A stretch of 56,856 bases of DNA, taken from assembly GCA_964625245.1 (NCBI GenBank), contig CAZVAN010000002.1:1-56856 (forward strand). The letters are read 5' to 3'. The stretch's first letter is position 1. Each line of letters begins with the position of its first letter. The position numbers and the translations under genes are program-made. The notes beneath the pieces were generated by a model. That model was not told the DNA's origin and searched no databases. It saw only the letters and a program-made list of their open reading frames with translations. The DNA is from an uncultured Candidatus Saccharibacteria bacterium. Lineage in GTDB: Bacteria; Patescibacteriota; Saccharimonadia; Saccharimonadales; UBA10212. Positions 20,525 through 56,808 of the stretch are shown piece by piece.

Positions 20525-20542
20525 CTACCCCACCCTCGCCAT

Positions 20543-22747: not shown

Positions 22748-22805
22748 ATTTATTATTTACCCATCTTGATAATGCTTAGGCTTATTGTAGCAAGCAAAAG
22801 CCATT

Positions 22806-23729: not shown

Positions 23730-23734
23730 TACCG

Positions 23735-24493: not shown

Positions 24494-24528
24494 AACTAAT
24501 CTATAGCGTATAAATTAACTATTATCAA

Positions 24529-25512: not shown

Positions 25513-25549
25513 CCTTGATTGCTCCGTATTCGAGCTAGATAGAACAGGC

Positions 25550-25714: not shown

Positions 25715-26573
25715 GTTCGCTCCGGATTTTACCGCCAAGTGTCCGCAACTCTTTGAGAGCTTTAACAGCCTGTTCGTGATTGGGTGTAACGCCGTGCCAA
25801 TGAAAATCGTACTCCATGAAATCCACACCCTTGCCCGGAACGTTATGGGCAATTATCATTACCGGCTGCTCCACAATGGCTTTGGCCATCTGTACAGCGT
25901 CTATTACGGCTTCCATATCATTGCCGTTAATCTCCAGCACATGCCAACCAAAGGCTTCCCATTTAGTTCTGAGGTCGCCCAGTGGCATGACCGTTTCCGT
26001 TGGCCCGTCTATCTGGATGTTGTTACGGTCAGTTATAGCGATGATGTTACTAAGGCGATATTTGCTGGCCAGCATAGCGGCTTCCCAGATGTTGCCCTCG
26101 TCCTGCTCGCCGTCACCAAGAATTACATAAACCCAGCGGTGCTGAGTCTTATCCATACGCATAGCTAACGCTATGCCAGCAGCTTGGCTAAGCCCGGAGC
26201 CAAGGGGACCGCTGGTATTTTCCAGGCCTGGTAGCCGTTCGCGCTCAGGGTGACCTTGCAAGCGGCTGCCAAATTGCCGAAGAGTCATAAGCTCTTTAAT
26301 GGGAAAGAAGCCGGCGTGGGCCATCGTAGCGTACTGAACCGGTACACAGTGGCCATTGCTTAGAAGTAATATGTCCCTCTCGTCCCAATCCGGGTTTTGG
26401 GGATCGTATTTCATAAGATGAAAGTATAGAGCCGTAAAAATATCTGCCAGGCCCAGAGGCCCGGCGGAGTGGCCACTGCCAGCGTGCTCCAACATCTTAA
26501 TAATGTCCTCGCGGATTTGATTGGCTTTTTTCTGCAACGCCTCCAGAGAATAAGTTTTTTGTTTATCAGCCAT
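25707..26573 (-). CDS. tkt: Transketolase, N-terminal (TPP-binding) subunit
   Basis: GSGHSAGPLG and GDGEQDEGNIWE motifs. Confidence 0.92.
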   Translation of the reverse strand: MADKQKTYSLEALQKKANQIREDIIKMLEHAGSGHSAGPLGLADIFTALYFHLMKYDPQNPDWDERDILLLSNGHCVPVQYATMAHAGFFPIKELMTLRQFGSRLQGHPERERLPGLENTSGPLGSGLSQAAGIALAMRMDKTQHRWVYVILGDGEQDEGNIWEAAMLASKYRLSNIIAITDRNNIQIDGPTETVMPLGDLRTKWEAFGWHVLEINGNDMEAVIDAVQMAKAIVEQPVMIIAHNVPGKGVDFMEYDFHWHGVTPNHEQAVKALKELRTLGGKIRSEHE

Positions 26574-26583
26574 ACTGCTTAAG

Positions 26584-26597
26584 ATTATAGCTCAAAA
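26584..26597 (-). promoter_or_regulatory. Candidate promoter of tktN: TTTTGAG-C-TATAAT
   Basis: On the minus strand it reads TTTTGAGCTATAAT, ending 10 nt before the tktN ATG. That implies a very short leader. Confidence 0.4.
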
Positions 26598-26612
26598 GAA
26601 TGTTTTTTGGGT

Positions 26613-26734
26613 CCCCGCGGCTTGAGGATAAGCCGTGGGGTTAAGCGTAAGGACATGCGCAAGCTGGAAGTAGTTTACGTTTAGAAAACTACGGAAGCTG
26701 AAGTTATGGCCTAAGCTGGTTGTCCTTCAAAAGC
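26613..26734 (+). repeat. Structured repeat element, copy 3 (divergent)
   Basis: 11-bp hairpin 26613-26640 with a G-U pair on the plus strand only, and an inner hairpin 26670-26676/26686-26692. It ends in the shared box gttgtccttcaaaagc (26719-26734), 8 nt before the rpe stop. Confidence 0.45.
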
Positions 26735-26742
26735 GTCAGCGG

Positions 26743-27387
26743 TTATGTCGTGCCGGTTTCGTCGGCGATACGGACCAAGTCATTGTAGGCTTTTCCTGGA
26801 TTTTCGGCAGTTTGCAGATAGCCGCCAACGTTAAGAACATCTACGCCGCCTTCAACCAAGCCGGCAACATTTTGCAGGTTTACGCCGCCATCCCAACCAA
26901 TTTCTAGTTCCGGTTTTTGATTTTTTAAAAACTTAACTTTGGCTAGCAATCCAAAATCGGCGTGGCCGCCAAAATTGCCTAAATCGCCAGAAAATATTAG
27001 AACGTGATCAATTTTTGGCAAGGCTTTTAAGATAATCTCAGGCGCTGTCTGCGGCAGCAGAGCTACTCCAATTTTTACTTTCCGGTCGCGGCAATAGTCC
27101 GCCAACTTGTCAAAGTCACCACCGGCTTCGGCATGAACAATAATCATATTGGGATTATGGGCCATAACCATCTCCACAACTGCTATAGGTTCTTGGTACA
27201 TTAAATGGATGTCGGCTTTGATGCCCACCGGCCACCAAACTTCCCTAGGGTTAATGGTAGCTGTCTTAGCAAATATGCCGTCCGTCAGATCTATCTGTAT
27301 CCTATGGCCTAAATGAGCCACTCGTTCAATTTGCTCGTCATAAGTCCCGCGCTCAGCAGCCAGTATCGTTGGGCAGATTAGGGGCAT
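26743..27387 (-). CDS. rpe: Ribulose-phosphate 3-epimerase family protein (divergent)
   Basis: 214-aa TIM-barrel pattern (ICPTILA...IQIDLTDG...). The context is rpiB and tkt. Confidence 0.6.
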   Translation of the reverse strand: MPLICPTILAAERGTYDEQIERVAHLGHRIQIDLTDGIFAKTATINPREVWWPVGIKADIHLMYQEPIAVVEMVMAHNPNMIIVHAEAGGDFDKLADYCRDRKVKIGVALLPQTAPEIILKALPKIDHVLIFSGDLGNFGGHADFGLLAKVKFLKNQKPELEIGWDGGVNLQNVAGLVEGGVDVLNVGGYLQTAENPGKAYNDLVRIADETGTT

Positions 27388-27881
27388 TAACTTTCCTTGT
27401 CCAGTTTAGCGATACGCCTGGCGTGGCGCTCCTCGCCGCCAAATTCAGTTTCCAGCCAAAGTCTTACGACTGACTTCATATCCTCGAGATTCACAAAGCG
27501 AGCGGCCAGACTAAGCATGTTAGCGTCGTTATGCAATCTTGAAAGGCGGACAATTTCGTACGGATCATGGCTAACACGACCATTAATATCAACCACACCT
27601 TTAGCTACTGCCGGTCCATAGAAGACAGCGCAGCGTATACCCTTAAAACGATTGGCGGCCATGGCCTCGCCCTGCCCACTCGCCCCCATAATTACTCCCA
27701 TTTGACACTCACCACTCGCTACGGCCTTAGCGGCCGGAAAAATAAAATCCGGATAATCGTCATCGGGCTTCAAGAAACCGGGTCCAAAATTATTACATGT
27801 ATGACCTAAGCTTTCCAGAAAAACTTGGAGTTCTTTTAGCTGCTCTAGGCCGGCGTGATCGGTGGAGATTGCGATGTTCAT
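27387..27881 (-). CDS. rpiB: Ribose-5-phosphate isomerase B
   Basis: MNIAISTDHAG... and RpiB/LacAB family layout. There is a 1-nt overlap with rpe. Confidence 0.88.
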   Translation of the reverse strand: MNIAISTDHAGLEQLKELQVFLESLGHTCNNFGPGFLKPDDDYPDFIFPAAKAVASGECQMGVIMGASGQGEAMAANRFKGIRCAVFYGPAVAKGVVDINGRVSHDPYEIVRLSRLHNDANMLSLAARFVNLEDMKSVVRLWLETEFGGEERHARRIAKLDKES

Positions 27882-27893
27882 TAGCGGCCTGCC

Positions 27894-29213
27894 TTATGAG
27901 TTATGCGTGTTCTCTGAGCCGAAGTCCGGTGAACCACTGGTAGGATTGTCGTCACTGCTGCGCTCGGCCGCCGTTTCCGGCTCGGCAGGTAAGGTAGTTG
28001 GCTCGTCTGGAGCTTCTAGCAGGGGCTCTTCAGGCTCTTTCATTAAATTGGGAAGTTCCGGCGAGGCCTCAGATTCCCCGTCGGGCTCTTCGATAGATGT
28101 ACTAGGAGCTTCTTCGGCGGTGTCTGAGTTGGTTGTGGGCGTTTCGTCGGCGACCACTTCATCGGTGCTAGTTTCGGAATCGGACTCCGAATTTGAATTT
28201 TCGTTTAGCAACTTGCCAGCGTCAGCCGTCAGCTCTACCAGACGGTTGGAGTAACCCCACTCATTGTCATACCAAGCCACCACTTTCAGCAGATTCCCAC
28301 CAATCACAGCTGTGAGTTTCAGATCGACTATAGCTGAGTGGCTGTTGCCTATGAAATCAGTACTAACTAATTCTTCTTCAGTTACAGCCACAATCCCTTG
28401 GTAGAAAGGTTCCTCCGCGGCTTTCTTGAAGACATCATTGACCTCCTCAACGGTCACATCTCGCTTAGTAACCACTACAAAATCGCTTAAAGAAACTACG
28501 GGGGTAGGAACACGTATGCTCATGCCGCCAAAAATACCCTCTAGGGCTGGCAGGGCCTTAGCAGCAGCAATACTGGCTCCGGTTGTAGTTGGCACAATGT
28601 TCTGAGCAGCAGCCCGGGCTTCGCGCAAATCTTTAGCCGGTGCGTCCTGCAAACGCTGGCTGGCTGTATAGCTATGAACGGTGGTCATCATGGCTTTCTC
28701 GATTCCAAAAGCATTCTCCAGAATATTCATGATTGGGGTAATGCAGTTGGTGGTGCAGCTAGCATTGGACAAGACTTGATGGTCGGCCGTTAACTTGTCT
28801 TCATTTACGCCAAGTACAAAGGTGTCGTGATAGTCATCGTCCTTTTCGGGTGCAGACAATATGACTTTTTTCGCGCCGGCATTAATATGTTTCAGCAAAT
28901 CTTCGTGCTTAGTAAATAAACCGGTTGATTCAATTACCACGTCAACGTCTAGATCTTTCCAAGGCAACTCGGTCGGGTCTTTTATAGCTAAGACCTTTAC
29001 TTTCTGACCGTCAACAATAATATTTTCGTCATCAAAGTCTACTTTGTTCTGGTAGGTCCCGTAGTTACTGTCGTGCTTCAGTAGATGTGCCAGAGTTTTG
29101 GTGTCGGTTAGATCATTTACGGCCACTACTTCTATGTCCGAACGAGCAAAAGCGATTTTAAAAGCGTTGCGGCCAATGCGCCCGAAACCGTTGATGGCTA
29201 TTTTGGTCTTCAT
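27894..29213 (-). CDS. gap: Glyceraldehyde-3-phosphate dehydrogenase with an acidic Pro/Ser/Thr-rich C-terminal extension of about 100 aa
   Basis: NGFGRIGR and SNASCTTN motifs. The canonical end WYDNEWGYSNR is followed by a low-complexity tail. Confidence 0.92.
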   Translation of the reverse strand: MKTKIAINGFGRIGRNAFKIAFARSDIEVVAVNDLTDTKTLAHLLKHDSNYGTYQNKVDFDDENIIVDGQKVKVLAIKDPTELPWKDLDVDVVIESTGLFTKHEDLLKHINAGAKKVILSAPEKDDDYHDTFVLGVNEDKLTADHQVLSNASCTTNCITPIMNILENAFGIEKAMMTTVHSYTASQRLQDAPAKDLREARAAAQNIVPTTTGASIAAAKALPALEGIFGGMSIRVPTPVVSLSDFVVVTKRDVTVEEVNDVFKKAAEEPFYQGIVAVTEEELVSTDFIGNSHSAIVDLKLTAVIGGNLLKVVAWYDNEWGYSNRLVELTADAGKLLNENSNSESDSETSTDEVVADETPTTNSDTAEEAPSTSIEEPDGESEASPELPNLMKEPEEPLLEAPDEPTTLPAEPETAAERSSDDNPTSGSPDFGSENTHNS

Positions 29214-40450: not shown

Positions 40451-41176
40451 TCAGGCAAAGCGAGTAACGACGAACATAAAAAGCGCGCCAAGTACAGTCA
40501 AACCGATAGTTACGCGGGAGCTATCTTTACTGTGAGCTTGGGGTAGAATATCGCTGGCACCGATATATAACAAAAAGCCCGCGAAGAAGCCCAGGTAAAG
40601 AATCAGCCCGTAGGAAGGCAGCGTAAACAATAGGGTAGATGCGGCGCCCACTACCGGCGCAAACGCGTCGAGCAGCAACATTTTTTTGGCACGAGCGGTA
40701 GTATTTTTATTGTGCAGCATCAATATCACTGTGTTCATCCCGTCGGTGAAATCATGGGCAATAACGGCAATAGCTACGGCGATGCCTACGGCATTGCCAG
40801 CTTGGAAGCCCAACCCAATACCAACACCGTCCAGAAAACTATGGCCGGACAGCGCCAGCGCACTAGCTATGCCAACGTGGGGATGAACATGCTGGCCATA
40901 GTGTCTTTCGTGGACAGAATGAAGCAAAATCGATTTTTCAATAATATGAAAAACCAAGAAGCCTAAAACGAGAGCGACCATTGGTCCGGTAGGGTTGAAA
41001 TTTCCCTCGCGCATACGGTCGAAGATTTCCGGCAGAAGATCAAAGGCTACTACGCCCAGAAGTACGCCAGCCGTATAGCCCATGATGCGGTGAATTATCT
41101 TCTGGTTTTTAAGAGCTGTTATGCCGCCTAGGAACGTAGAAAAGAAGGTGGCGATAGATAAAACTATGGGAAGCAT
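40451..41176 (-). CDS. ZIP family metal (zinc) transporter
   Basis: Polytopic with HSFLDGVGIG and AHDFTDG motifs. I trimmed the start to MLPIVLS. Confidence 0.85.
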   Translation of the reverse strand: MLPIVLSIATFFSTFLGGITALKNQKIIHRIMGYTAGVLLGVVAFDLLPEIFDRMREGNFNPTGPMVALVLGFLVFHIIEKSILLHSVHERHYGQHVHPHVGIASALALSGHSFLDGVGIGLGFQAGNAVGIAVAIAVIAHDFTDGMNTVILMLHNKNTTARAKKMLLLDAFAPVVGAASTLLFTLPSYGLILYLGFFAGFLLYIGASDILPQAHSKDSSRVTIGLTVLGALFMFVVTRFA

Positions 41177-41240
41177 TGCTCCAAAATAACTGCTTGCGTA
41201 AATATTTGCAAATTTGTCGCAATTATCTATAATTTTGCAT
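41177..41240. promoter_or_regulatory. Divergent ZIP/zur control region with AT-rich TTGCA repeats (candidate Zur operator)
   Basis: Imperfect palindrome TTGCgtaaatatttGCAA plus further TTGCA/GCAA half-sites. Confidence 0.3.
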
Positions 41241-41654
41241 ATGTATGACACACTCAGCGCCGTTCTAAAACAAAAGGGCTATAGCCTAACTTCCCCCCGT
41301 AAACTAATCTTTGAGCTAATGCTGAATAGCGGGCCTCTGACTATTGCTGAGCTAATAGCCAAAGCTGGGGACACAATAGACCGAGCCACGGTCTACCGGA
41401 CGACCGAATTGTTTGAAGAACTTGGTATTGCCCACCGTTTGAATATCGGCTGGAAGTACAAGTTGGAACTCAGCGACGCGTTCGTTGGACATCATCATCA
41501 CCTGCACTGCACTAACTGCGGTAAAACCTATGATTTACCAGCAAATACGATGCTCGAGACAATGATAGATTCAGTAGCCGCTAAGGAAAGTTTCTCGCCC
41601 CGTGGCCACCAGTTAGAAATTTATGGACTGTGCGCTCAGTGCTCTAAGAACTAA
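41241..41654 (+). CDS. Fur family regulator (Zur-like)
   Basis: wHTH region, the HHHHLHC..CG metal site and C..C at the C-terminus. It is divergent from the ZIP transporter. Confidence 0.82.
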   Translation: MYDTLSAVLKQKGYSLTSPRKLIFELMLNSGPLTIAELIAKAGDTIDRATVYRTTELFEELGIAHRLNIGWKYKLELSDAFVGHHHHLHCTNCGKTYDLPANTMLETMIDSVAAKESFSPRGHQLEIYGLCAQCSKN

Positions 41655-43123
41655 GCCCCGCCTGTTATGGCTCCACTGGGGTCGACGATTTCGTTCTTTA
41701 CAAGGAAAAATACTGCTACGGCCGCAACCAGCGCCAGACCAGCGCCTACATGCAGCGCTGATTGGTAGCCATGAACCTGGGCATACTTGGCGGCGACTCC
41801 CGCGTGAGTCTGGGTTTTAACGGTGGAAAATGCTACAGCCGACAGGACCGCTAGGCCAATGGCTCCACCGACTTGCTGAGAGGTATTTAGGACTCCGGAA
41901 GCAATACCCGAAAGTCGCTTGGGTACTCCAGAAGTGGCCGCTAATGTGCCTGAAACGAACGTCAAACCCATACCCGACGCCACTAGAGCCAGACCGGGAA
42001 AGACATTGTGCCAATAGTTACCGCCAACCTTCATGGTGTGGGCAATTACAAACAGCCCCAGCGCCAAGACAAGCGGGCCAAGATTCAGGGTTGGCTTATA
42101 GCCAATTTTAGGTACGATCTTGGATACGACACCGGAAAGAGTCGCAATCACCAGCGTTACCGGCAAGAAGCAGACACCGGTTTTAACTGGTGAAAAGCCA
42201 AGAACTTGCTGAACGTAAAGCGTCATGAAGAAGAACATAGAAAATAACGTGCAGGATATTGCCAAAAATGCGGCGTTACCACCAAGCACGTTGCGTATCC
42301 GGAACAAACTGAGCGGCAGCATTGGCTGTTTAGACTTGCGCTCGTTAATCACAAACCCAATCAGCAGCACGATCCCGGCAGCGATAAACTCCCACACGAT
42401 TTTGGAATTCCAGCCGTCTTTAGGCGCTTTAGAAAGCCCGTAGACCAAACTCATAAGTCCGGCTGTGGCCAGAGCTGCGCCTGGCAAGTCGAGTTTCAGC
42501 TTCTTATTATCTTCCCCGATGTGATGGGGTAGCATACGTATCGATGCCAAAAGCACAAAAATACCAACCGGAACATTTACGAAGAAGTTCCAGCGCCAGT
42601 TGAGGTATTGAGTCAATATACCGCCCAGCAGCAGCCCCACGGCAGCGCCGCCAGCTGATACTGCTGCCCAGATACCAAGGGCTGTATTGCGTTCTTGGCC
42701 CTCTTTAAACTCACTAATAACGATTGATAGAGCCGCTGGGGACATAAATGCGCCCGCCAGACCTTGAGCTGCTCGGGCGATAATAACTTGGGTATCAGTA
42801 GCAGCCATCCCGCACAAAAATGACATCAAGGCGAAGAAAAAGACCGAACCTATAAATATATTTCGGCGGCCGTAAATATCGGCCGCGCGACCTCCGAGCA
42901 ACAAGAATCCACCAAAGGTCAAGGTATAGGCCGTGACGACCCATTGTAAATTATTAGAGGCAAAGTGTAGGGCGCTAGCCATGCTCGGCAAAGCAACATT
43001 AACCACGGTGACATCGAGAACGACCATGAATTGGGCGATTACCAGCAGTGCTAGGATTAACCACTTATTTTCAGCGTGTTTTGAGAGATTTCGATTTCGT
43101 TCTGCGTTTTTAGTATTAGCCAC
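41651..43123 (-). CDS. MFS transporter, DHA2 (EmrB/QacA, 14-TMS) family
   Basis: 490 aa with the motif GGRAADIYGRR. Confidence 0.85.
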   Translation of the reverse strand: MANTKNAERNRNLSKHAENKWLILALLVIAQFMVVLDVTVVNVALPSMASALHFASNNLQWVVTAYTLTFGGFLLLGGRAADIYGRRNIFIGSVFFFALMSFLCGMAATDTQVIIARAAQGLAGAFMSPAALSIVISEFKEGQERNTALGIWAAVSAGGAAVGLLLGGILTQYLNWRWNFFVNVPVGIFVLLASIRMLPHHIGEDNKKLKLDLPGAALATAGLMSLVYGLSKAPKDGWNSKIVWEFIAAGIVLLIGFVINERKSKQPMLPLSLFRIRNVLGGNAAFLAISCTLFSMFFFMTLYVQQVLGFSPVKTGVCFLPVTLVIATLSGVVSKIVPKIGYKPTLNLGPLVLALGLFVIAHTMKVGGNYWHNVFPGLALVASGMGLTFVSGTLAATSGVPKRLSGIASGVLNTSQQVGGAIGLAVLSAVAFSTVKTQTHAGVAAKYAQVHGYQSALHVGAGLALVAAVAVFFLVKNEIVDPSGAITGGA

Positions 43124-43251
43124 TGGTGATACCCGTCCTTTCTAACTCCTCCATTTTGAACTTTAAGTTTTAAATATATAACAACGGCTAGCGATTTGAC
43201 AGTAAAATTTTGTCTCGCCAGCCAAAATGCTTTAGGTTAAACTGAACGAGG

Positions 43252-44430
43252 ATGCATAAAAAAGAAAAGGTCATAATTGCGGGCGGCGGCTTTGGTGGGA
43301 TTAAGGCGGCCTTAGAACTAGCCAACAAGCCAGAGTTTGACGTAACCCTTATTTCAGATCAGCCAAATTTTCGCTATTATCCTACCCTCTATCACGCCGC
43401 CACCGGTGGCAAAGTAGCGGCTTCGTCCATCCCGCTTGACGAAATCTTTAGAGACAAGGGTGTGCAAGTCGTCACCGATTCAATCAAACACATTAATCGC
43501 GACAAAAAAACCGTAATTGGTAAAAAGTCTTATGAGTACGACACTTTGATACTGGCGTTGGGCGTCGTTACTAATTTCTTTGGCATTAAGGGTCTGAGTG
43601 AATATGCTTATGGCATAAAGACTATTGAGGAGGCTCAGCGACTGCGAGACCACATCCATAAACACCTGGTTGATGAGCGCAAACCTGACCTGAATTACGT
43701 AGTCATTGGCGGTGGCCCAACCGGCGTGGAACTGGCCGGAGCCTTGCCCAGCTATATCCGCCACATCATGGCCCGCCACGGTCTAAAAGACACTCGTGTC
43801 CACGTAGATCTAGTCGAAGCTGCTCCGCGGCTGATGCCGCGCATGCCGCGAGCCTACTCCAAGGCTCTAGCTCGCCAACTCAAAAAAATGGGTGTCAAAC
43901 TCTATCTTGGCGAAACCGTTGAGGCTGAAACCGCTGACTTTCTCAATTTCTCCGAGCATACCCTGGAAAGCCACACCGTAATCTGGACAGCCGGCGTTAC
44001 CAACCACCCGTTTTTTAAAGACAATAATTTCACCTTAACACCGCGCGGAAAAGTACTAGTTAACGAATATCTGGAGACCGAGCGTCATATTTACGTGGTG
44101 GGTGACAACGCCGACACTACCTATTCCGGAATGGCGCAAACAGCCTTGCATGACGGTAAGACCGTGGCTCACAACTTGATCCGCCAGTTTAATGACAAGC
44201 CAAGACTCGCCTACGAAGCGGTTAAGCCAGCTTATGCCACGCCAGCCGGACCGCGTTGGGCGGCATTACTTTGGGGGCCATTCCATACTTACGGCTGGTT
44301 GGGTTGGGTTTTGCGTAGCGCCGCCGATTGGATAGCCTATCACGACCTGGAACCGGTCTGGCAAGCTACCAAACACTGGATGGCGGAAATCGGCGAAGAA
44401 GAAACCTGTCCGGTTTGCAAGTCTGACTAA
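43252..44430 (+). CDS. ndh: Type II NADH dehydrogenase (NDH-2)
   Basis: Two dinucleotide folds, GGGFGG and GGGPTGVE. Confidence 0.85.
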   Translation: MHKKEKVIIAGGGFGGIKAALELANKPEFDVTLISDQPNFRYYPTLYHAATGGKVAASSIPLDEIFRDKGVQVVTDSIKHINRDKKTVIGKKSYEYDTLILALGVVTNFFGIKGLSEYAYGIKTIEEAQRLRDHIHKHLVDERKPDLNYVVIGGGPTGVELAGALPSYIRHIMARHGLKDTRVHVDLVEAAPRLMPRMPRAYSKALARQLKKMGVKLYLGETVEAETADFLNFSEHTLESHTVIWTAGVTNHPFFKDNNFTLTPRGKVLVNEYLETERHIYVVGDNADTTYSGMAQTALHDGKTVAHNLIRQFNDKPRLAYEAVKPAYATPAGPRWAALLWGPFHTYGWLGWVLRSAADWIAYHDLEPVWQATKHWMAEIGEEETCPVCKSD

Positions 44431-44481
44431 GACGACCTTAAGCCGCCTCTCAGGCTTTAAGCTGATATTATTAGGTATAAC

Positions 44482-46005
44482 GTGAAGCAACTAACTTTAT
44501 TTATACAGAAGATGGGTGATGGCTTGGATGCCCAGCTGGACAAGCTGACAACTTACCGGCTGGTTCTATATCTTTTATGCATCTATGTAGGCGTGGCTAG
44601 CCTGCTGGGCTTTGCTGGTAAGTTGGGCTTTAGCGGTTTGTCGATTCTGGGCTCGGTCGTATGGTTAGTGGCGGTTTGCCGGGCAACTAACTGGTCGATT
44701 AGCAAGTTTTTTAAATTGCCCCGCAACCATGAATCCGACCTGATATCGGCCTTGATATTGTCATTAATTCTAACACCGGCTAGTGACCTTCATAGCTATG
44801 TGGTTCTGGCCGGAGCCGGCGTGGCGGCCATGGGCTCTAAGTATTTGCTGACATTTTACAGACGCCATATTTTTAACCCGGCTGCTCTTGGCGCCTTTAT
44901 ATCGGGAATTTTGTTCCACCAATACGCCAGCTGGTGGGTGGGGACTCATACTCTGGCTCCGTTTCTGCTCATTGGCGGTCTGCTAATCTTACGTAAAATG
45001 AAACGAACCCAGATTGTCGGCCTGTTTGTTTTTATTTATCTGGCATATCTAATTCTGCATAGCTCTACCGGTATTACCGGTCACCTGATATGGGTCGGTC
45101 TGGTTTCCACTCCCCTGTTATTCTTTACCACCGTCATGTTGACCGAGCCGCTTACTTCGCCAACTTCCTTCAGGAAAGGCCTGGTATATGCCGCGGTGGT
45201 GGGGCTGCTATATTCAGTTGCCGCCGCTCACTTTTCGCCGGAGAAAGCTTTGCTAGCTGGTAACGTCCTGGCCTTTGCTATGACGCCTAGCCGCAGCCTG
45301 CTCTACAAACTCATTAATCGGAGCAAAGAGGCGGAAGGCATCTATAGTTTTACCTTTGAGTCACCGCGTAAAATCAATTTTCAGGCTGGTCAGTACATGG
45401 AGTGGACCTTGCCGGGAGTAGCCGCCGATAGCCGCGGCAACCGCCGCTATCTGACTGTGGCCAGCTCGCCGACCGAGGAAAATCTAATGTTTACCGTCAA
45501 AATCCCGAGCCAGTCTAGCAGCTTCAAGACTAGTCTTATGAACATGAAACCAGGTGATCAGATTCTGGCTTCTCAGTTGGGAGGGGATTTTACGCTGCCC
45601 AAAGATAATACCCAGAAGCTGGCCTTCATTGCCGGCGGAGTTGGTATAACTCCTTTTCACAGCATGCTCAAATATCTGGTAGACACCAACCAGAAAATCG
45701 ACGCCCATTTATTTTATTCGTTGAATTCGCCGGCCGAACTGGCATATAAAAACTTGCTGGTGACGGCTCAGGGCCAGGGGCTAAAGAATCATATCGTTAT
45801 CAGTAAGGACGCTCCGGCTGGCTGGAAGGGTTTGACTGGATATATCGACGAAAGGTTAATTGGTGTCAGCCTACCTGATTACATGCAGCGCCACTTTTAC
45901 ATATCCGGCCCACAGGGATTTGTCTCCGCGGTGCACCAATCTCTGCTCCGACTCGGCGTTGAGCACGCACACATCAAGACAGACTTTTTCCCGGGCTACA
46001 ACTAA
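44482..46005 (+). CDS. Polytopic NqrB/RnfD-like membrane domain fused to an FNR-type FAD/NAD(P)-binding reductase
   Basis: N-terminal multi-TM region (LLIGGLLILRK). The C-terminus has RRYLTVAS (RxYS-type) and GGVGITPF. GTG start, with an alternative ATG at 44512. Confidence 0.7.
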   Translation: MKQLTLFIQKMGDGLDAQLDKLTTYRLVLYLLCIYVGVASLLGFAGKLGFSGLSILGSVVWLVAVCRATNWSISKFFKLPRNHESDLISALILSLILTPASDLHSYVVLAGAGVAAMGSKYLLTFYRRHIFNPAALGAFISGILFHQYASWWVGTHTLAPFLLIGGLLILRKMKRTQIVGLFVFIYLAYLILHSSTGITGHLIWVGLVSTPLLFFTTVMLTEPLTSPTSFRKGLVYAAVVGLLYSVAAAHFSPEKALLAGNVLAFAMTPSRSLLYKLINRSKEAEGIYSFTFESPRKINFQAGQYMEWTLPGVAADSRGNRRYLTVASSPTEENLMFTVKIPSQSSSFKTSLMNMKPGDQILASQLGGDFTLPKDNTQKLAFIAGGVGITPFHSMLKYLVDTNQKIDAHLFYSLNSPAELAYKNLLVTAQGQGLKNHIVISKDAPAGWKGLTGYIDERLIGVSLPDYMQRHFYISGPQGFVSAVHQSLLRLGVEHAHIKTDFFPGYN

Positions 46006-46730
46006 GCTAGTAGTGCTTGCATGCCGGCAGTCATAGAAATTTTGCCGGTTTTGTCTACCGCGTAGGCTTCATAGCCACGGGCTTGACCTCCAACGAAATT
46101 GAGGCCAAATTTACCTTGCACGAAAGCGGTGGTGGCCAGTACATCAGCGTTGATAATATCCGGGCCAACAACACTAATACTCAAAATTGAATCCGCTGGC
46201 TTACCTGTTTTTGGGCTAACAATATGTAGACCTCTCTCGTAATTCCCACTAGTTGCAATTGCCATATTTTTAACTGCAACGCCTGCGAGTATGGCGCCCC
46301 TGTTCTGCGGGTTTTGGATACCAATTTTCCAAACTTTATCGGAATCACTGGCTGCCAGGATATCGCCACCTATAGCTATACAAAAAGTATTGTAGCCGCC
46401 CTTTTTGATAATTTTAGCGGCCTCGTTTATCGCCCAGCCCTTGACATAGCCGGATGGGTCAAAAGAACCAGTGGCCCATGCCGAAAAAAAGCCTTGAGTC
46501 GCTTGCTCGGCTGCTTTACAGGCTTTAATTATGGCCTTTAGGTCCCGGCTCACGTTCGGTTCGGCAATCTCTCCCCTGCCGTAGCGTGAAACTTCGCTCT
46601 CTGGCTTATATGTACTAAATTGACTATCGATTTCTCTCAGCCGCGCAAAAACTTTTTCAAAGATAACTTCTTTGGCCCCCGGAATATCAATACTGACTCC
46701 CGTGCCCATTATGATTCGGCTGACTCTCAT
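46002..46730 (-). CDS. apbE: ApbE-family FAD:protein FMN transferase (no obvious signal peptide)
   Basis: MGT..SI, FDPSGYVKGWA, GGD and ATSGNYERG motifs. Confidence 0.85.
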   Translation of the reverse strand: MRVSRIIMGTGVSIDIPGAKEVIFEKVFARLREIDSQFSTYKPESEVSRYGRGEIAEPNVSRDLKAIIKACKAAEQATQGFFSAWATGSFDPSGYVKGWAINEAAKIIKKGGYNTFCIAIGGDILAASDSDKVWKIGIQNPQNRGAILAGVAVKNMAIATSGNYERGLHIVSPKTGKPADSILSISVVGPDIINADVLATTAFVQGKFGLNFVGGQARGYEAYAVDKTGKISMTAGMQALLA

Positions 46731-46744
46731 ATCTAAATTGTAGC

Positions 46745-47209
46745 TTAACTCTGCGCAGCTTGATCAAGCGCCGCCTGCAATGATTGCTGAAAACCAAAGC
46801 TGGTACTGGTAGCCCCCGACACAAAATCGATGTTTGAAGCGTTTTGTTTATCTATTGCGGTCTGCTTTAGAAGCGGTTTGGAGAAAGTGGTTACCTCCAC
46901 CGAGTGGTTCTGGTCGCTCGGCATCTGCAAAAATTTAACGTCGGTTATTTTACCTCCGCTTATAACTGCAGCTACCTGTACTGTTCCGTACGGCGTATCC
47001 GTAGCATCGCCCGTGTAGGTGCCGTCTTTATATGTAACAGGCGTATTTTGGCTGGCCGAAGTGACACTACCCGAACTATTTGTTTGAGTAGAAGCCGCTG
47101 AGGAAGCCGGCGTAGTTAGATGGAAGTTTGAAGACTTTTTATTATTGGAATAGAGAACCATGGCCCCTAATATGGCTACGGCAAGGATTATAATTACTGC
47201 TTTTTTCAT
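46745..47209 (-). CDS. Membrane-anchored FMN-binding domain protein with a flavinylation motif
   Basis: N-terminal TM helix, Ser/Thr linker, YKDGTYTG and DFVSGATSTS (DxxSGAT). Confidence 0.85.
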   Translation of the reverse strand: MKKAVIIILAVAILGAMVLYSNNKKSSNFHLTTPASSAASTQTNSSGSVTSASQNTPVTYKDGTYTGDATDTPYGTVQVAAVISGGKITDVKFLQMPSDQNHSVEVTTFSKPLLKQTAIDKQNASNIDFVSGATSTSFGFQQSLQAALDQAAQS

Positions 47210-47377
47210 TGACCTGCTCAGTTTACCAAACCATAACTGAATTTACGCTGAGCTTGTCTTTTAATTAATTGCTTGCTATTTTTTGCGCCGTAATTCAAAC
47301 CACAAGCTTTTTAACCTTTATGGGTGTATATTTAGCAATATAAACGAATAATCTGCCTAAAAACACTAGTCAACAAA

Positions 47378-48745
47378 ATGCCAACTAAAAAACCTCTTAT
47401 AAGTTCGCTGCGTAACCTGATGATTCAAGAGGTGCCGGCCTACGCCAATAAATTCTATTATTCGCTTGGTTTTCTATCTATGATTTCGTTTGTGCTGCTG
47501 CTGGCCACCGGGCTAGTTATGGTTTTTTACGGACCAGACTGGTGGTTAACAGATAGCGTTGGTAAATATGTTAGAAGTGTTCATCTATGGGCCACCCAAG
47601 CCTTTGTGCTCTTTATCTTGCTGCATTTGATGGTCGTTTTCTTTACTTCCGGGTTTCGAAAACCCAGGCGCACTACATGGGTACTTGGCTCCCTGATGTT
47701 CTTGTTTGTTATAGCCGAGGCCGAATTCGGCTATGTACTTAGGGATGATTTTTCTTCCCAGTGGCGAGCTCTTCAAGGCGCCGATTTTTATAATGGCAGC
47801 GGATTAGGTTGGTGGATCAACTCACTTAATTACCGTCAGATTTACGGAATCCATGTTGTCTTGATACCAGCCATTATTATCGGCCTGCTGTTCATGCACT
47901 ATCTTCTAGTTCGGGTACTGGGTATTGCTAAGCCTTACCGAAAAGACAAAATAGCAGCGACAGTTAAGGCTGACCACGGCAAACTTTTTGCCAGAGGCGG
48001 CGTGTTAGCAATTCTGATACTTATCCTGGCGGTTATCTTCCCATCACCGTTCCTTAAACCGACGACTACTAAAGAAATCGCTCAAAACGATCCCAAACTA
48101 ATGGGCCAAACCCTAGTAAAGGAATTTGACCATAGCAGCGATACGGCCGGCTATATGGACAGCATTCAACCCTATAAGTTTGACACCCGGGCGGTTTTCG
48201 TCGAGCAGCCGTACGCCCAGCTGGCGGCTCTACAAAGTTCGCCTAACTTCCTGACAAAATACAACTCTGAGCCTGCTAGTCTTCAGGCTTCGCAACTATC
48301 AGCTGCTCGGGATTACTTTGATAATACTTACCCTCATATAGATAAGACCGCCAACCCCCTAATAACAGCTGTCGGTTCTTTAATAGATATGGGGTCTGCC
48401 GGTTTTTACCAGCCTGCCCTGAATGCCGCCAATCCCGAAGGTGCTTATGCCACTCGCTTTTTGGCCGATACTGGCGTACTTGATGATCGAGCCCAGGCTC
48501 TGAACATCACTACCGAACAATATGGCATGCTACGCGAAGAGCAAGGCCGAATTCCACCCGGCGCCTGGTGGTTGGCACCAATCGGGCTGCTGAATCACAC
48601 AGTTTTAAGTAATGACGAAAATGGCGATCGGGATGGCGCCGCGATATTGGGCGGATTATTGCTACTACTTGTCGCCTTTCCGTTCATCCCAGGTCTAAAC
48701 AAGCTACCCGACAAACTTAAAATTTATAAGCTCATTTGGCGTTAG
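47378..48745 (+). CDS. Di-haem cytochrome b-like membrane protein with a large extra C-terminal region
   Basis: H-x13-H (HLWATQAFVLFILLH) and H-x14-H (HVVLIPAIIIGLLFMH) sit in predicted TM helices. About 200 further residues and a terminal TM helix follow. Confidence 0.7.
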   Translation: MPTKKPLISSLRNLMIQEVPAYANKFYYSLGFLSMISFVLLLATGLVMVFYGPDWWLTDSVGKYVRSVHLWATQAFVLFILLHLMVVFFTSGFRKPRRTTWVLGSLMFLFVIAEAEFGYVLRDDFSSQWRALQGADFYNGSGLGWWINSLNYRQIYGIHVVLIPAIIIGLLFMHYLLVRVLGIAKPYRKDKIAATVKADHGKLFARGGVLAILILILAVIFPSPFLKPTTTKEIAQNDPKLMGQTLVKEFDHSSDTAGYMDSIQPYKFDTRAVFVEQPYAQLAALQSSPNFLTKYNSEPASLQASQLSAARDYFDNTYPHIDKTANPLITAVGSLIDMGSAGFYQPALNAANPEGAYATRFLADTGVLDDRAQALNITTEQYGMLREEQGRIPPGAWWLAPIGLLNHTVLSNDENGDRDGAAILGGLLLLLVAFPFIPGLNKLPDKLKIYKLIWR

Positions 48746-48835
48746 TCAGTTCCGGCCATTCTATCTTTATAGTTTGTGCCGAGGTTGCTTAAGTTGAACG
48801 TTGCCTATTAACACTAATAAGACTAGGCTTAGTCG

Positions 48836-49234
48836 GTGCAGGTAAAGGTACTAATAGTTGACGATGACGATTACATGGTCCGCCTCTATAGGCGTCTATT
48901 TGAGTATGAAGATTTTGTGGTCTTTGTTGCTCAGGATGGACAGGCTGCTATCGAGCTAGTCAATGAGCTGCAACCCAACCTTATAATGTTAGATATCATG
49001 ATGCCGGTTATGAACGGTCTGGAGGCTCTTGAGATATTAAAGGGAGCGAAGCTCACCAAGGAAATCCCTATAGTAATGCTCACCAATCTGAACGACGCCG
49101 CCAATATTGAAAAAGCCAAGGCACTTGGAGCTGACGATTACCTACTTAAAAGCAACTTTGAAGGGGATTACATCATGGGCGTGGTTCGCAAATATATTCC
49201 GAGCCCTGCCCCGTTACCTTTGATAGGACGTTAG
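48836..49234 (+). CDS. Stand-alone response-regulator receiver domain (CheY-like)
   Basis: DDDD acidic pocket, LDIMMP phospho-Asp and a conserved Lys in DDYLLK. GTG start. No kinase gene is nearby. Confidence 0.85.
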   Translation: MQVKVLIVDDDDYMVRLYRRLFEYEDFVVFVAQDGQAAIELVNELQPNLIMLDIMMPVMNGLEALEILKGAKLTKEIPIVMLTNLNDAANIEKAKALGADDYLLKSNFEGDYIMGVVRKYIPSPAPLPLIGR

Positions 49235-50412
49235 CCGACGCGGTAGTCGTCCGGCAGCATGGTAATGGCGTAGCCAACTTCATTAACCCGGCCGGCCCGG
49301 CCAATACGGTGAACATAATCTTCGTAGCTTTGAGGCACGTCGAAATTAATTACGTGGGTGATGCCAACTACGTCTATGCCCCTAGCCGCTACATCGGTAG
49401 CTACCAAGATGTTAGAGCGGTCTTCGCGGAAAGTATCCAGCGCCCGTTTGCGTTGGCCTTGATTTTTGCCGCCGTGCAAAGATACGCTTTTAAAACCACG
49501 CTCGTTGAGTTCTTTGCTTAGCCGCTCCACCCCGTATTTTGTACCACCAAAAATCAAAACTTTCTTAACTTCTGGCTTAATCAAGATATCGTGCAGTTTA
49601 TCAAGCCGTCCGGTTTTGCCGGAATAATGGACTACCGCCTGGTGGACATTTTCGCTGGTTTCGCCTACTTTGACATTGATAGTCACTGGTTCGTGAGTAA
49701 AACTCTGGATAAGGCGGTTAATCTCCGGACTGAGTGTGGCGCTGAAGAAGAACGATTGCTTATTTGCCGGCATTTTCTCGAGTATGAAGCTGACATCGTT
49801 GATGAAGCCCATATCCAGCATGCGATCTACTTCATCCAGAACTACCATACCGCAGTTCCCCAGATGTAACGTGCCTTGGCGCAAATGGTCTTTGATACGC
49901 CCCGGCGTACCTATAATGACTCGGGCGCCGTTTTTTAAATCACGAATCTGCTTGCTCAGCGGCATACCGCCAATCAGCAGCGCGCCAGTAAGGCCGGAAT
50001 TGCGGGCAATTAGTCGGCACTGCTCCTCTATCTGGATTGCCAGCTCGCGGGTTGGCGCAATAATCAGCGCCTGACCACCGCCATGCAGTAACCTATTAAG
50101 AATCGGCAGCGCAAAAGCCGCCGTTTTGCCAGTACCAGTGTTGGCGATACCAATAACGTCACTGCCGGCCAGGCCGTGCGGAATTGTTTTGTCTTGAATT
50201 TCAGACGGTGTTTTATAGCCTTTGGCAGCAATATTATTTTTTAGAAGCGGGTGTATAGCAAAGCTAGAGAACTGGTTGTCGGCTACGTAGTCGCTGGCCT
50301 CTACCGGGTTGGCTTCTTTGACGAATCGGCTGGGGTGAATGGTTGACTTTGCACCACGCGGCTGACGCCTGGTTTGGGGCCGCGGTTTTCGGTTAAATGT
50401 ATAGTTTGGCAT
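49231..50412 (-). CDS. DEAD-box RNA helicase (motif II reads DEVD)
   Basis: Q motif, TGTGKT, PTRELA, DEVD, SAT and HRIGRAGR. Confidence 0.9.
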   Translation of the reverse strand: MPNYTFNRKPRPQTRRQPRGAKSTIHPSRFVKEANPVEASDYVADNQFSSFAIHPLLKNNIAAKGYKTPSEIQDKTIPHGLAGSDVIGIANTGTGKTAAFALPILNRLLHGGGQALIIAPTRELAIQIEEQCRLIARNSGLTGALLIGGMPLSKQIRDLKNGARVIIGTPGRIKDHLRQGTLHLGNCGMVVLDEVDRMLDMGFINDVSFILEKMPANKQSFFFSATLSPEINRLIQSFTHEPVTINVKVGETSENVHQAVVHYSGKTGRLDKLHDILIKPEVKKVLIFGGTKYGVERLSKELNERGFKSVSLHGGKNQGQRKRALDTFREDRSNILVATDVAARGIDVVGITHVINFDVPQSYEDYVHRIGRAGRVNEVGYAITMLPDDYRVG

Positions 50413-50523
50413 AAAAAAATAGATCCTTATTGGTTAGTTGGTTAACTCTGGTTACTACTTGCTTGAATGAAACCTGAGTATTAACGCTTAACTAAACCCG
50501 GATCCATTTGTAACAGTAACTAT

Positions 50524-50553
50524 ATTTTAGCATAAGTAAAATTATTTGTCCAA
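50524..50553 (-). promoter_or_regulatory. Candidate promoter of the helicase gene (TTGGAC-18-TAAAAT)
   Basis: Minus strand. It would give a leader of about 105 nt. Confidence 0.35.
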
Positions 50554-50659
50554 CTATGGTGGGGTTTTGTACCCCGGTTTCTGCTAGTTGAAAATTTTAC
50601 TACAAGAATTTCTATATTTTTATCTGTAAACCACATAAGCGTAATGGTGTAAAAAATAC

Positions 50660-54648: not shown

Positions 54649-55338
54649 ATGTCAGAAAGCCGTTTTTCCGGTAGCTCTCGCTCGCCACTTAGCACTGCTC
54701 AGACGGCGGAGAGTTTAAGGATGCAATTGGCTTTAGAGGAATTTGGGCAGACACTCCCCCGTAACGTTCTGCAGTCTGCACCTCGGACCCCAGAATACAA
54801 ACAAAGAAGTCCTAGAACTTGTTTTTACGCCTCCTTAATAGCGGCACGCCTGTCGCTCGGATCCAGGATGCTGCCGTCTGAGGGACATATCGCCGCACAG
54901 GCCAATCGCGCCGGGCTGCTGGGTGAACATGGTGCCGAAACTTTTTCCGAACACCGCGATGACCAAGCTGCCTTTGTAGACAAGGTATTGGGGCTACAAA
55001 TACGTTTTATAGACCAGAAATATGATGATGAGCGCATAGATGCCCTAACCCGAGGGTTAAGAGATGAGGGCAAACCTGTGCTATTTGGTACTTATCGACA
55101 TTGGGTTGTGTTGGATGGTTTTAAACGTACCCGAAAAGCAGGATGGATAGGAATGAATCCGGCCAGCGGCCGCAGGTTGGAAGATACCGGCGAAGAATTA
55201 TACCCGCCATATATCGCCAGCAGATTGGTTGCGTCTGGTATGCCGCTGGTAGTAATAGAGAATTCTCATGAGCCAGCGGCCCGATTCCGCCCTGCACACC
55301 ACAGCACTGCCCGCTCTATCCCCGCAGTCCAAACCTAA
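54649..55338 (+). CDS. Predicted papain-fold (C39-like) cysteine peptidase
   Basis: Q-x5-C (KQRSPRTCFYASL) and HWVVLDG....WIGMNP match the Gln/Cys/His/Asn(Asp) order of C39-type peptidases. Confidence 0.5.
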   Translation: MSESRFSGSSRSPLSTAQTAESLRMQLALEEFGQTLPRNVLQSAPRTPEYKQRSPRTCFYASLIAARLSLGSRMLPSEGHIAAQANRAGLLGEHGAETFSEHRDDQAAFVDKVLGLQIRFIDQKYDDERIDALTRGLRDEGKPVLFGTYRHWVVLDGFKRTRKAGWIGMNPASGRRLEDTGEELYPPYIASRLVASGMPLVVIENSHEPAARFRPAHHSTARSIPAVQT

Positions 55339-55356
55339 CCATCCGTTTATTTTGAG
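55333..55356 (+). repeat. Array junction repeat J6 (includes the ACC-TAA stop)
   Basis: ACCTAACCATCCGTTTATTTTGAG. Confidence 0.8.
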
Positions 55357-55385
55357 CGTAGCGTAGTATTGTATTTATAGCATAA

Positions 55386-56108
55386 ATGTTGTATGATATG
55401 TCAATGGAATTATCTGGAAGCGAAGGTTTGCCAAATCCAGTTTTTAGTCAATCAATGGCCGAGCGTCTGGACAAAGAGACGTCATTTGAGTCTGTCGGAA
55501 AAAGCCAGCAAGACCGACAGGAAGAAATCAGGCATGCCAGGGAATTTAGACGAAGCTTGATTCAAGACGCGCTGGCTCAAATCGCTGTGCTGAAAGAATG
55601 GCCCGTCGAATACTTAGACTCTGAGAGAGACAAATTTTATACCACGGAACGCCGGCGACAAAATTATGTAGAAAAATACGAGGCAAGGGATCAGTTAGAA
55701 GTCGAAGAACTGCTGTCAGGCCTCGATTTAGATAACACTGAGCACTTTTATCAATTAATGGAGAAGTTGAGGCAGGTCTATACGGATTTAAAGATGCGTC
55801 TGATGATAGTTGAAATGGAAACTAGGCGGTTGGTCTTCAAGCTTTATGGTCAGTCTACCCACACTAAAGAGACACGAGAAGAGCGCATCGTTAGATTGCT
55901 TAACAACGAAGAGGGAGAGGTAGATATAGCCGATGTTGTGCTTGCAGAAATTGATGGAATGCGCGAAGAAGGTAAAGACGAAGTTAGCATTTTTCGTGCC
56001 CTGATGCGCAAGTACCATCCCGATGTATCCGAAATAGAAAAGGCCAAAGAAATAACTCGACTTATAATCTCCCTCTACGACAGTAGGTTAAAACACTTCG
56101 TCATTTAA
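55386..56108 (+). CDS. Coiled-coil protein with a C-terminal J-domain-like segment (HPD motif)
   Basis: IFRALMRKYHPDVSEIEKAKEITRLIISLYD resembles J-domain helices II-III. An alternative start is at 55404. Confidence 0.5.
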   Translation: MLYDMSMELSGSEGLPNPVFSQSMAERLDKETSFESVGKSQQDRQEEIRHAREFRRSLIQDALAQIAVLKEWPVEYLDSERDKFYTTERRRQNYVEKYEARDQLEVEELLSGLDLDNTEHFYQLMEKLRQVYTDLKMRLMIVEMETRRLVFKLYGQSTHTKETREERIVRLLNNEEGEVDIADVVLAEIDGMREEGKDEVSIFRALMRKYHPDVSEIEKAKEITRLIISLYDSRLKHFVI

Positions 56109-56130
56109 ATACTTAACGAGTTAGGTATTC

Positions 56131-56173
56131 CCTGCCCGCTTATTTTGAGCGTGCTTATGCTTGCAATGCAAGC
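56131..56173 (+). repeat. Array junction repeat J7 with palindromic extension
   Basis: cctgcccGCTTATTTTGAGCGTGCTTATGCTTGCAATGCAAGC. The palindrome spans 56159-56173. Confidence 0.85.
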
Positions 56174-56214
56174 TCTTCAGGAGTAGTTTTACTTCTTAGC
56201 AAGAGATTGAAATT

Positions 56215-56808
56215 ATGGACTTTGGTGAAAAAGGTGAACTTATATTTGAAGATGAACTCGAGGCCAGAGTTGCGGTTGAGTTATTGAATGGAGCTGGCCG
56301 GTCCGATTTAGTTGACCATGTGAGACCGCCGCTAAACAATCCAGGTATTGGCTACTTTGAGTTTTCCAGAAGAATGCGAGATCTTAGGCATGGACAAGTC
56401 GAAGAAGGCGTACATAGAGTTGAGGAACCCGACGCATTAATCGAGATAGTTAAGACCCTAGTCAAAACGTCTAATATGCACTACACCTTTAGGACGAATC
56501 GGGCCGGTACCAGACGGGACTTTATGGGTGCCAAACTTCGAGAGCTACATAAAAAAAACGAGGATAGGCAGGCCGAGTCAAAAATAGCATCAACCGATAG
56601 GCGTATGACTAAAGTCGAGTTGGGCGACGCGATGATCCTTGGTTATATGACCGCAGAGGAGGCGGATTCAATCGCTAAAAGAAGAGCCTTTGTCGAACAA
56701 TATTTGGCCGAACGTGGCTGGGATGCCACCAACCTAACAATTGAGCAACTTATCGAAGTAAGGTCGCAGCCAGGCTGGAAGTTATCTGACGAAGCGTCAC
56801 CAAGCTAA
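56215..56808 (+). CDS. Hypothetical protein (197 aa)
   Basis: ORF only. I recognise no family. Confidence 0.5.
   Translation: MDFGEKGELIFEDELEARVAVELLNGAGRSDLVDHVRPPLNNPGIGYFEFSRRMRDLRHGQVEEGVHRVEEPDALIEIVKTLVKTSNMHYTFRTNRAGTRRDFMGAKLRELHKKNEDRQAESKIASTDRRMTKVELGDAMILGYMTAEEADSIAKRRAFVEQYLAERGWDATNLTIEQLIEVRSQPGWKLSDEASPS

Follow-up and report, generated by a model that had tools for sequence, protein, structure and literature searches.

A stretch of 56,856 nucleotides from an uncultured Candidatus Saccharibacteria bacterium of the Saccharimonadales (contig CAZVAN010000002.1 of assembly GCA_964625245.1), hereafter called the window, carries at positions 43252-48745 five adjacent genes that had been predicted to form a flavinylation-centred membrane redox cluster in a genome of the candidate phyla radiation (CPR) type. 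Saccharibacteria, like other CPR bacteria, are regarded as fermenters without electron-transport chains, and the re-oxidation of NAD(P)H bears on their dependence on a host. The locus represents a soil or environmental Saccharimonadales lineage in which a predicted NAD(P)H-to-external-flavin module lies beside a type 2 NADH dehydrogenase (NDH-2).

The five open reading frames (ORFs) were reproduced by ORF listing at exactly the predicted coordinates. They encode an NDH-2-like flavoprotein (43252-44430, plus strand, 392 aa; Pfam Pyr_redox_2, E 1.8e-46), a fusion of an NqrB/RnfD-like domain with an FNR-type domain (44482-46005, plus strand, 507 aa; PF03116 NQR2_RnfD_RnfE and PF00175 NAD_binding_1), an ApbE-family FAD:protein flavin mononucleotide (FMN) transferase (46002-46730, minus strand, 242 aa; Pfam ApbE, E 1.1e-41), a membrane-anchored FMN-binding protein of the NqrC/RnfG type (46745-47209, minus strand, 154 aa; Pfam FMN_bind, E 6.3e-9), and a di-haem cytochrome b (47378-48745, plus strand, 455 aa; Cytochrom_B_N_2, 1e-18, and Cytochrome_B, 7e-12). 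Chance was excluded for all five because long ORFs coincided with highly significant profile matches. The original prediction was correct in all five assignments, as judged from the ORFs, Pfam, PDB and motifs; profile searches on each protein did not move the fusion or the cytochrome b into unrelated families, and the combination of ApbE, an anchored FMN-binding protein and a membrane redox protein bore out the view of a flavinylation-centred module. The CPR-type origin was likewise borne out, as homologues of the fusion and the cytochrome b carry the source names Candidatus Saccharibacteria or Saccharimonadales.

The fusion protein scored 39.8 bits with PF03116 (cut-off 27.7) and 56.4 bits with PF00175 (cut-off 22; E 5e-15), and consists of an NqrB/RnfD-like membrane domain (residues ~1-268) followed by an FNR/NqrF-like FAD/NAD(P)H domain (residues ~270-507). 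The RxYT, GGxGxxP and SGP motifs of the FNR half were all present (RRYLT, 45442-45456; GGVGITP, 45634-45654; YISGP, 45898-45912), and this half matched the NqrF FAD domain 7qu3 in a profile search of the PDB (E 2e-18). An AlphaFold2 model of the whole fusion (predicted local distance difference test, pLDDT, 86.6) led Foldseek to NqrF FAD domains with a target-normalised template modelling (TM) score of 0.7; these full-length results were dominated by FNR-domain matches and gave no independent test of the fold of the membrane domain. For the membrane domain, which contains a conserved MLTEPLTSP at 45136-45162, single-sequence phmmer against the PDB returned no match, and a profile was needed to reach RnfD (8ahx_D, E 1.3e-3), the sole PDB match.

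In the profile alignment, residues 161-257 of the fusion were paired with residues 221-320 of RnfD, and a weak second block paired residues 99-156 with 43-100. Residues ~100-221 of RnfD (~120 residues), which lie between these blocks, had no counterpart in the fusion, and it is this stretch that presumably holds the loop with the flavinylated Thr. When one genome per species was scanned with a degenerate pattern, at least 598 fusion loci were obtained, and the best 80 of these (L001-L080, with flanks of up to 10 kb) were used for the gene-order counts around the fusion. The flavinylation motif D..[ST]GA[ST] was absent from the window fusion and from all 80 homologues, whereas 51 of the 73 homologous FMN_bind ORFs contained it. 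This agrees with Huang 2024 (PMC10979944), who modelled a two-subunit complex, saw no conservation in the fusion of the site at which NqrB/RnfD is flavinylated, and obtained an AlphaFold-multimer model with the FMN domain docked on the extracytosolic face. The helix pattern of our model together with the positive-inside rule fits a cytoplasmic FNR domain, and would place the loop that would have borne the covalent FMN on the outer side. This would be in keeping with a published proposal in which the partner's covalent FMN takes up that site.

The FMN-binding protein is composed of an N-terminal transmembrane helix, a Ser/Thr-rich linker and the FMN_bind domain, in which DFVSGAT occupies residues 128-134 (46808-46828); FMN attachment is predicted at Thr134. 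It has one FMN_bind domain and no lipobox cysteine, and reached only 32.3 bits with the NCBIfam model of PplA (NF041941; cut-off 325). The charges around the anchor are ambiguous in the window protein, with KK on each side. In most of its homologues the positive charge is greater on the N-terminal side of the anchor, and long linkers rich in Ser, Thr and Pro come after it. Linkers of this kind are typical of surface tethers. The protein has the look of an external domain tethered by a linker to a type II anchor.

The ApbE gene starts 15 nt past the stop codon of the FMN_bind gene, and its 3' end overlaps that of the convergent fusion gene by 4 nt. The protein scored 143.6 bits with PF02424 (cut-off 25.6), and its PDB matches were FmnB and ApbE (E 1e-18 to 3e-8). 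It missed the NCBIfam ApbE equivalog cut-off (60.6 bits against 498), which is consistent with a compact variant. When aligned with Listeria FmnB (7esa), it begins at chain residue 27, just after the FmnB leader, and carries an internal deletion of ~50 residues with the GGD, TSG.Y, H...P.TG and D...T blocks kept. The window ApbE has no hydrophobic N-terminus, and its ORF leaves no room for a signal peptide. None of the 73 ApbE ORFs beside fusions had a signal peptide, a lipobox or a transmembrane segment, no hydrophobic segment was found in the in-frame upstream sequence, and homology started at residues 1-8 in nearly all of them. The ApbE proteins of these operons were uniformly compact (~240-250 aa).

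The best PDB matches of the NDH-2 were all NDH-2 enzymes (9pxk, 4e-37; 4nwz, 6e-33; 5na1, 3e-31; range to 1e-30), the solved relatives including B. subtilis YjlD (4e-37) and the enzymes of C. thermarum (4nwz) and S. aureus, and SQR followed behind them (E 6e-14). Its GxGxxG motifs read GGGFGG at residue 11 (43282-43299) and GGGPTG at residue 153 (43708-43725). At 44134-44151 the protein reads AQTALH, with the last Q of AQxAxQ replaced by H; we take AQxAxQ to be the quinone-site motif of NDH-2 and AQTALH to be a variant of it. The fusion gene follows on the same strand after a gap of 51 nt.

Residues 1-225 of the cytochrome b resembled QcrB and cytochrome b6 (phmmer against the PDB, E 1e-15). 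The haem-ligand residues H69, H83, H159 and H174 (codons at 47582-47584, 47624-47626, 47852-47854 and 47897-47899) were invariant in 27 homologues and aligned with the ligand positions of QcrB and b6. The remainder (residues ~229-455) consists of a transmembrane helix, a ~190-aa helical extracytoplasmic domain, a PPGAWW motif (48554-48571) and a final transmembrane helix. In the AlphaFold2 model (pLDDT 72.7) the helices of the ecto-domain were confidently modelled, and Foldseek returned QcrB (9e-9), to which the whole model aligned at a TM score of ~0.4 only. The C-terminal half matched nothing in Pfam, NCBIfam or the PDB, including a profile search of the PDB. Among 1.84 billion clustered proteins this module (48062-48742) had only 66 representatives, and other lineages have it as a separate protein (250-360 aa) as well. 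The presence of PPGAWWLAPIGLL followed by a transmembrane helix, together with the split stand-alone versions, had raised the idea that the C-terminal half is an equivalent of subunit IV and the PEWY-helix F region with a large insertion in the ef loop; Pfam, NCBIfam and the PDB profile search gave this idea no support, and it was dropped.

Conservation of the five genes

The order FMN_bind, ApbE, fusion on one strand was found in ~71 of the 80 loci. An NDH-2 homologue lay within 6 kb of the fusion in two loci, and a cytochrome b homologue within 6 kb in none. The five genes are thus not one co-conserved cluster, and only FMN_bind, ApbE and the fusion are conserved together. The original prediction had proposed a unified five-gene cluster, to be judged beforehand by its co-conservation in related genomes; the proposal was rejected both from the fusion side (80 loci) and from the cytochrome b side (86 loci, see below), the NDH-2 being limited to one clade and the cytochrome b being rarely nearby. 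The window itself shows a rearranged order, with the FMN_bind-ApbE pair placed after the fusion and convergent to it.

Among the matches listed, the fusion loci spanned many classes of Patescibacteria, Chloroflexota, Mesorhizobium and other Alphaproteobacteria, and Actinomycetota. The three-gene operon occurred in several Mesorhizobium species and other Alphaproteobacteria with FMN_bind ORFs that are much longer (~270-350 aa) (L004, L010, L016, L019, L029, L043, L046 and others), and the system therefore reaches past the range of "Actinobacteria and CPR" first reported. The original report counted 127 clusters; the at least 598 loci obtained here from species-representative genomes show the module to be far more widespread. 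Sporadic partners within ~5 kb downstream of the fusion were a histidine kinase (24 of 80 loci), an OmpR-type response regulator (19), a MacB-like ABC transporter (22) and a VIT1-like gene (7). Clustering of neighbouring ORFs in the 80 loci, noisy from shadow ORFs in high-GC genomes, revealed no general extra partner of the operon. A cytochrome b561-like gene was seen near the operon in five of the 80 loci, e.g. L019.

A different picture of the NDH-2 was obtained from the close relatives of the window. It lay directly upstream of the fusion in all six scorable relatives, whose fusions are 49-72% identical to that of the window (L001, L081-L084 and L172); L085, with a fusion 74% identical, was left out of this count because the locus is incomplete. 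The gap between the two genes was 9-52 nt in L081-L084 and L172, and L001 had the NDH-2 at the same position. The order in these relatives was ZIP, (FUR), MFS (minus), NDH-2 (plus) and fusion (plus), with the FMN_bind/ApbE pair either convergent or co-directional. The pairing is therefore a conserved feature of one Saccharimonadales clade and not of the system at large, and NDH-2 and the fusion are probably co-transcribed in this clade.

The context of the cytochrome b was examined in 86 loci obtained from a metagenome scan and look-ups. A flavinylation gene was nearby in five of them (L086, L092, L133, L142 and L163). Of the 24 loci whose flanks reach 3 kb or more on either side, one had such a gene. 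The nearest relative, L086 (87% identical), had the same arrangement as the window, namely FMN_bind (minus), cytochrome b (plus) and then a response regulator, a gene that follows the cytochrome b only in these two loci. The FMN_bind and cytochrome b genes lie side by side in divergent orientation in the window, with 168 bp between them, and in L086 and L163. The cytochrome b stood alone in unrelated contexts in L087-L091. In L081, L082, L083 and L172 it was not beside FMN_bind or ApbE, the genes that come after the FMN_bind/ApbE pair there being MetK, a DEAD helicase and genes of no recognised function; L084 ends before the point where it could lie. The family was 60-87% identical across Saccharimonadales, against ~50% for the fusion. 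Taken together, these findings indicate that the cytochrome b is probably a separate, usually stand-alone membrane redox protein of Saccharimonadales.

In L092 (GCA_040959485.1, 6291-13468) the order was VKOR, cytochrome b, PfkB, AdoHcyase, FMN_bind, ApbE and fusion, so that the cytochrome b lay 2.4 kb upstream of a canonical FMN_bind-ApbE-fusion operon; a flavokinase gene was found shortly after the fusion on the opposite strand. VKOR enzymes are quinone-dependent, and the position of this gene next to the cytochrome b hints at actual quinone use by these quinone-auxotrophic bacteria.

Neighbouring genes and the rest of the window

Upstream of the NDH-2, Pfam identified a ZIP transporter (minus), a FUR-family regulator (plus) and an MFS transporter (minus) at 40451-43123. 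This block also adjoins the NDH-2 and the fusion in L081, L083, L084 and L001, and in L172 without FUR. The divergent ZIP/FUR intergenic region (window 41203-41233) contains a conserved element, TATTTGCAAATTTGTCGCAA, followed by TATAAT; in L081, L083 and L084 the TATAAT is unchanged and TATTTGCAAATTTGTCGCAA almost so. The element is likely to act as the promoter and operator through which a Zur/Fur-type regulator controls its own gene. The TTG at 41214 that is annotated as the start of the FUR ORF falls within this element, and the true start is therefore probably further downstream. A FUR/Zur operator shared by NDH-2 and ZIP-FUR was considered and rejected, as the strongly conserved element occurred only in the ZIP-FUR intergenic region; the region upstream of NDH-2 showed only a conserved -10-like block, and the promoter alignments gave no evidence for co-regulation of ZIP-FUR with NDH-2. 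A promoter and terminator scan of 41000-50600 gave counts close to those of shuffled sequence and was uninformative.

Downstream of the cytochrome b, the response regulator mentioned above is a stand-alone receiver domain (48836-49234, plus strand; Pfam Response_reg, E 1.8e-26). A Pfam scan of 50 ORFs of the window detected neither genes for the biosynthesis of quinones or haem nor an oxidase or any other respiratory gene; the other ORFs were housekeeping, glycolysis and pentose-phosphate genes. The predicted lack of quinone and haem biosynthesis in the window was confirmed in this way, and the description of the gene set as respiration-poor stands for this 56.9-kb contig, the support for it not extending to the whole genome. 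Within a run of pentose-phosphate and glycolysis genes (21743-29213), the GAPDH ORF at 27894-29213 (minus strand, 439 aa) has Pfam GAPDH domains that stop at residue 315, leaving a C-terminal extension of ~120 residues without assignment. Consecutive ORFs of 197-398 aa without a Pfam match were seen within 18531-21739 on the minus strand (18531-19307, 19325-19951 and 20543-21739) and within 54649-56808 on the plus strand (54649-55338, 55386-56108 and 56215-56808).

Electron path and alternative explanations

We lean towards the reading that the region holds three separable things, namely the core trio, the NDH-2 and the cytochrome b, rather than one five-gene machine. In the core, the fusion and the anchored FMN_bind protein would form a two-subunit NQR/RNF-like complex, which ApbE would mature by attaching FMN to Thr134 of DFVSGAT. 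For this complex we infer the following direction of electron flow, cofactors and acceptor. Cytoplasmic NAD(P)H would reduce the FAD of the FNR/NqrF-like domain, following Méheust 2021 and Huang 2024; the electrons would then cross the membrane via a non-covalent flavin site in the shortened NqrB/RnfD-like domain, and would arrive on the outer face at the covalent FMN of the NqrC-like subunit, from where they would go to an extracytoplasmic acceptor. Such one-way flow would make the complex an NAD(P)H sink for a fermentative epibiont. The NDH-2, which is of classical size, would be a second NADH-oxidising entry dependent on scavenged quinone, and the cytochrome b an independent Saccharimonadales membrane cytochrome that came to lie beside FMN_bind by happenstance in this lineage.

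Several observations weigh against this reading. The window ApbE, like its counterparts in 73 of 73 homologous operons, has no leader, yet the FMN domain is presumed to be external, and leaderless ApbEs otherwise serve cytosolic substrates (PMC12052999). Three routes to flavinylation come into question: FMN may be attached before export, the FMN domain may be internal, or ApbE may reach the outside in another way. The conserved NDH-2/fusion pair suggests more than independent entries. Furthermore, the cytochrome b is found near flavinylation genes in four arrangements (window, L086 and L163; L133; L142; L092), which is above chance for a genome of ~1 Mb, and some functional coupling or a loose link is possible.

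The last two points are also what an integrated, quinone-dependent export chain of the Listeria kind would explain, in which electrons would pass from NDH-2 to host menaquinone, then to the cytochrome b or a quinone site of the NqrB-like domain, and through the surface flavoprotein to an extracellular or host acceptor. Such a chain is in line with the NDH-2/fusion pair of the clade, with the divergent FMN_bind/cytochrome b genes and the other juxtapositions (including the VKOR gene before the cytochrome b in L092), and with the cytochrome b being closest to the menaquinol-oxidising QcrB of actinobacteria; Actinobacteria are the usual hosts of Saccharibacteria, and NqrB bears a quinone site in the Na+-NQR. 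We nevertheless regard it as unlikely, because ~94% of the cytochrome b loci show no linkage, as do 23 of the 24 with sufficient flanks, NDH-2, fusion, ApbE and FMN_bind are retained in close relatives with no cytochrome b adjoining them, the window contains no quinone biosynthesis or Eet/Dmk genes, the score with the PplA model is far under its cut-off, and the fusion has an NAD(P)H entry of its own. A little less likely still would be, for this Saccharimonadales clade, a minimal respiratory-like chain on host menaquinone, with NDH-2 and the FNR domain feeding the NqrB-like module and/or the cytochrome b and then the surface flavoprotein, to which the leaderless ApbE would have attached FMN in the cytoplasm before export. 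If this were true, no flavin exporter would be needed, a new maturation route for extracytosolic flavoproteins would be at hand, and the epibiont could dump reductant onto its host or oxygen.

The core module could also be an assimilatory metal (ferric) reductase, whose external FMN would reduce Fe(III) or another metal for uptake under the control of the adjoining FUR-family regulator. VIT1 iron transporters were found in six NQR/RNF-like clusters by Méheust 2021 (PMC8238504), as were VIT1-like genes in seven of the 80 loci here, and the ZIP-FUR-MFS synteny beside NDH-2 and the fusion in the clade points the same way. The ZIP-FUR pair, however, looks self-contained and divergent with its own conserved operator-like promoter, no such element lies upstream of NDH-2, L172 has no FUR, and in most of the 80 loci the operon has no metal transporter close by; we give this explanation a low probability. 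The leaderless state of ApbE, a family whose leaderless members act on cytosolic targets, and the KK on both sides of the window anchor would be accommodated by a system facing the cytoplasm, in which the FMN domain would be flavinylated and kept inside as part of an internal NAD(P)H:quinone or ion-motive oxidoreductase. This appears very improbable in view of the charge pattern and long linkers of most homologues, the extracytosolic FMN domain in the published AlphaFold-multimer model (PMC10979944), and the segment absent from the fusion, which would be the carrier of the periplasmic FMN loop of RnfD.

Comparison with known systems

The original prediction likened the locus to the flavin-based extracellular electron transfer locus of Listeria monocytogenes (Ndh2, EetA, EetB, DmkA/B, FmnA, FmnB and PplA). 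Both bring together an NDH-2, an ApbE-family transferase and a tethered FMN protein in a monoderm-type cell. The analogy does not hold further: the 50 scanned ORFs included no candidates for EetA, EetB, DmkA or DmkB, no prenyltransferase and no polyprenyl synthase, every gene in the cluster and around it fell into some other family, the FMN protein of the window has one domain and scores far under the PplA cut-off (32.3 against 325 bits), its ApbE is leaderless and not a lipoprotein, and transfer across the membrane would presumably run via the NqrB-like fusion.

With the cytochrome b of bcc and b6f complexes (actinobacterial QcrB, b6), the window protein shares the four-helix di-haem core, the H-x13-H and H-x14-H spacings and PRR..W after helix B. 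It differs in having neither the PF00032 C-terminal domain nor PEWY, its C-terminal part being instead the transmembrane helix, ~190-aa helical ecto-domain and transmembrane helix of no known family. No Rieske or cytochrome c partner was present near the cytochrome b in seven annotated contexts, and no Rieske family occurred in the gene lists of the window and of L086-L092.

In Saccharibacteria, Starr 2018 (PMC6031116) described a soil genome with an NDH-2 modelled on the C. thermarum enzyme and a "novel protein" with NqrB-like and NqrF-like domains, the same pair as in the window. Quinone biosynthesis was missing or incomplete there and in Nicolas 2021 (PMC8407418), and scavenging was suspected or implied. 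Those genomes contain a cytochrome bo3 oxidase operon, unlike the 57-kb window, and in these reports the fusion was not tied to flavinylation and the cytochrome b family was not reported.

The Na+-NQR and RNF complexes have modules homologous to the NqrB/RnfD-like, NqrC/RnfG-like and NqrF-like parts of the window, and they share ApbE-dependent maturation. In contrast to these complexes, the window and related operons have no NqrA/D/E or RnfA/B/C/E subunits and no 2Fe-2S domain, the membrane domain of the window is ~270 aa without the covalent-FMN loop, and flow is presumed to be one-way rather than semicircular and ion-pumping.

The closest agreement was with the NQR/RNF-like system, which Méheust 2021 (eLife, PMC8238504) defined as flavinylation clusters containing a protein with N-terminal PF03116 and C-terminal PF00175, and which has been reported mainly from Actinobacteria and CPR (PMC8238504; PMC10979944). 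The combination of fusion, ApbE and FMN_bind is thus a published one and nothing uncommon for the CPR, with at least 598 loci. Our literature search found no experimental report on the system, and two gaps in its description are exposed here, namely how a leaderless ApbE matures an exported flavoprotein and what role the orphan Saccharimonadales cytochrome b plays. The window shares with the NQR/RNF-like system the PF03116-PF00175 fusion clustered with apbE and a motif-bearing anchored FMN_bind protein, the absence of the NqrB/RnfD flavinylation site from the fusion, and the CPR host. At every point that could be checked the trio agrees with the published description, and it is a system of this already described kind rather than a new one; the local peculiarities of the window are its rearranged order, the pairing of an upstream NDH-2 with the fusion and the occasional presence of a cytochrome b beside FMN_bind.

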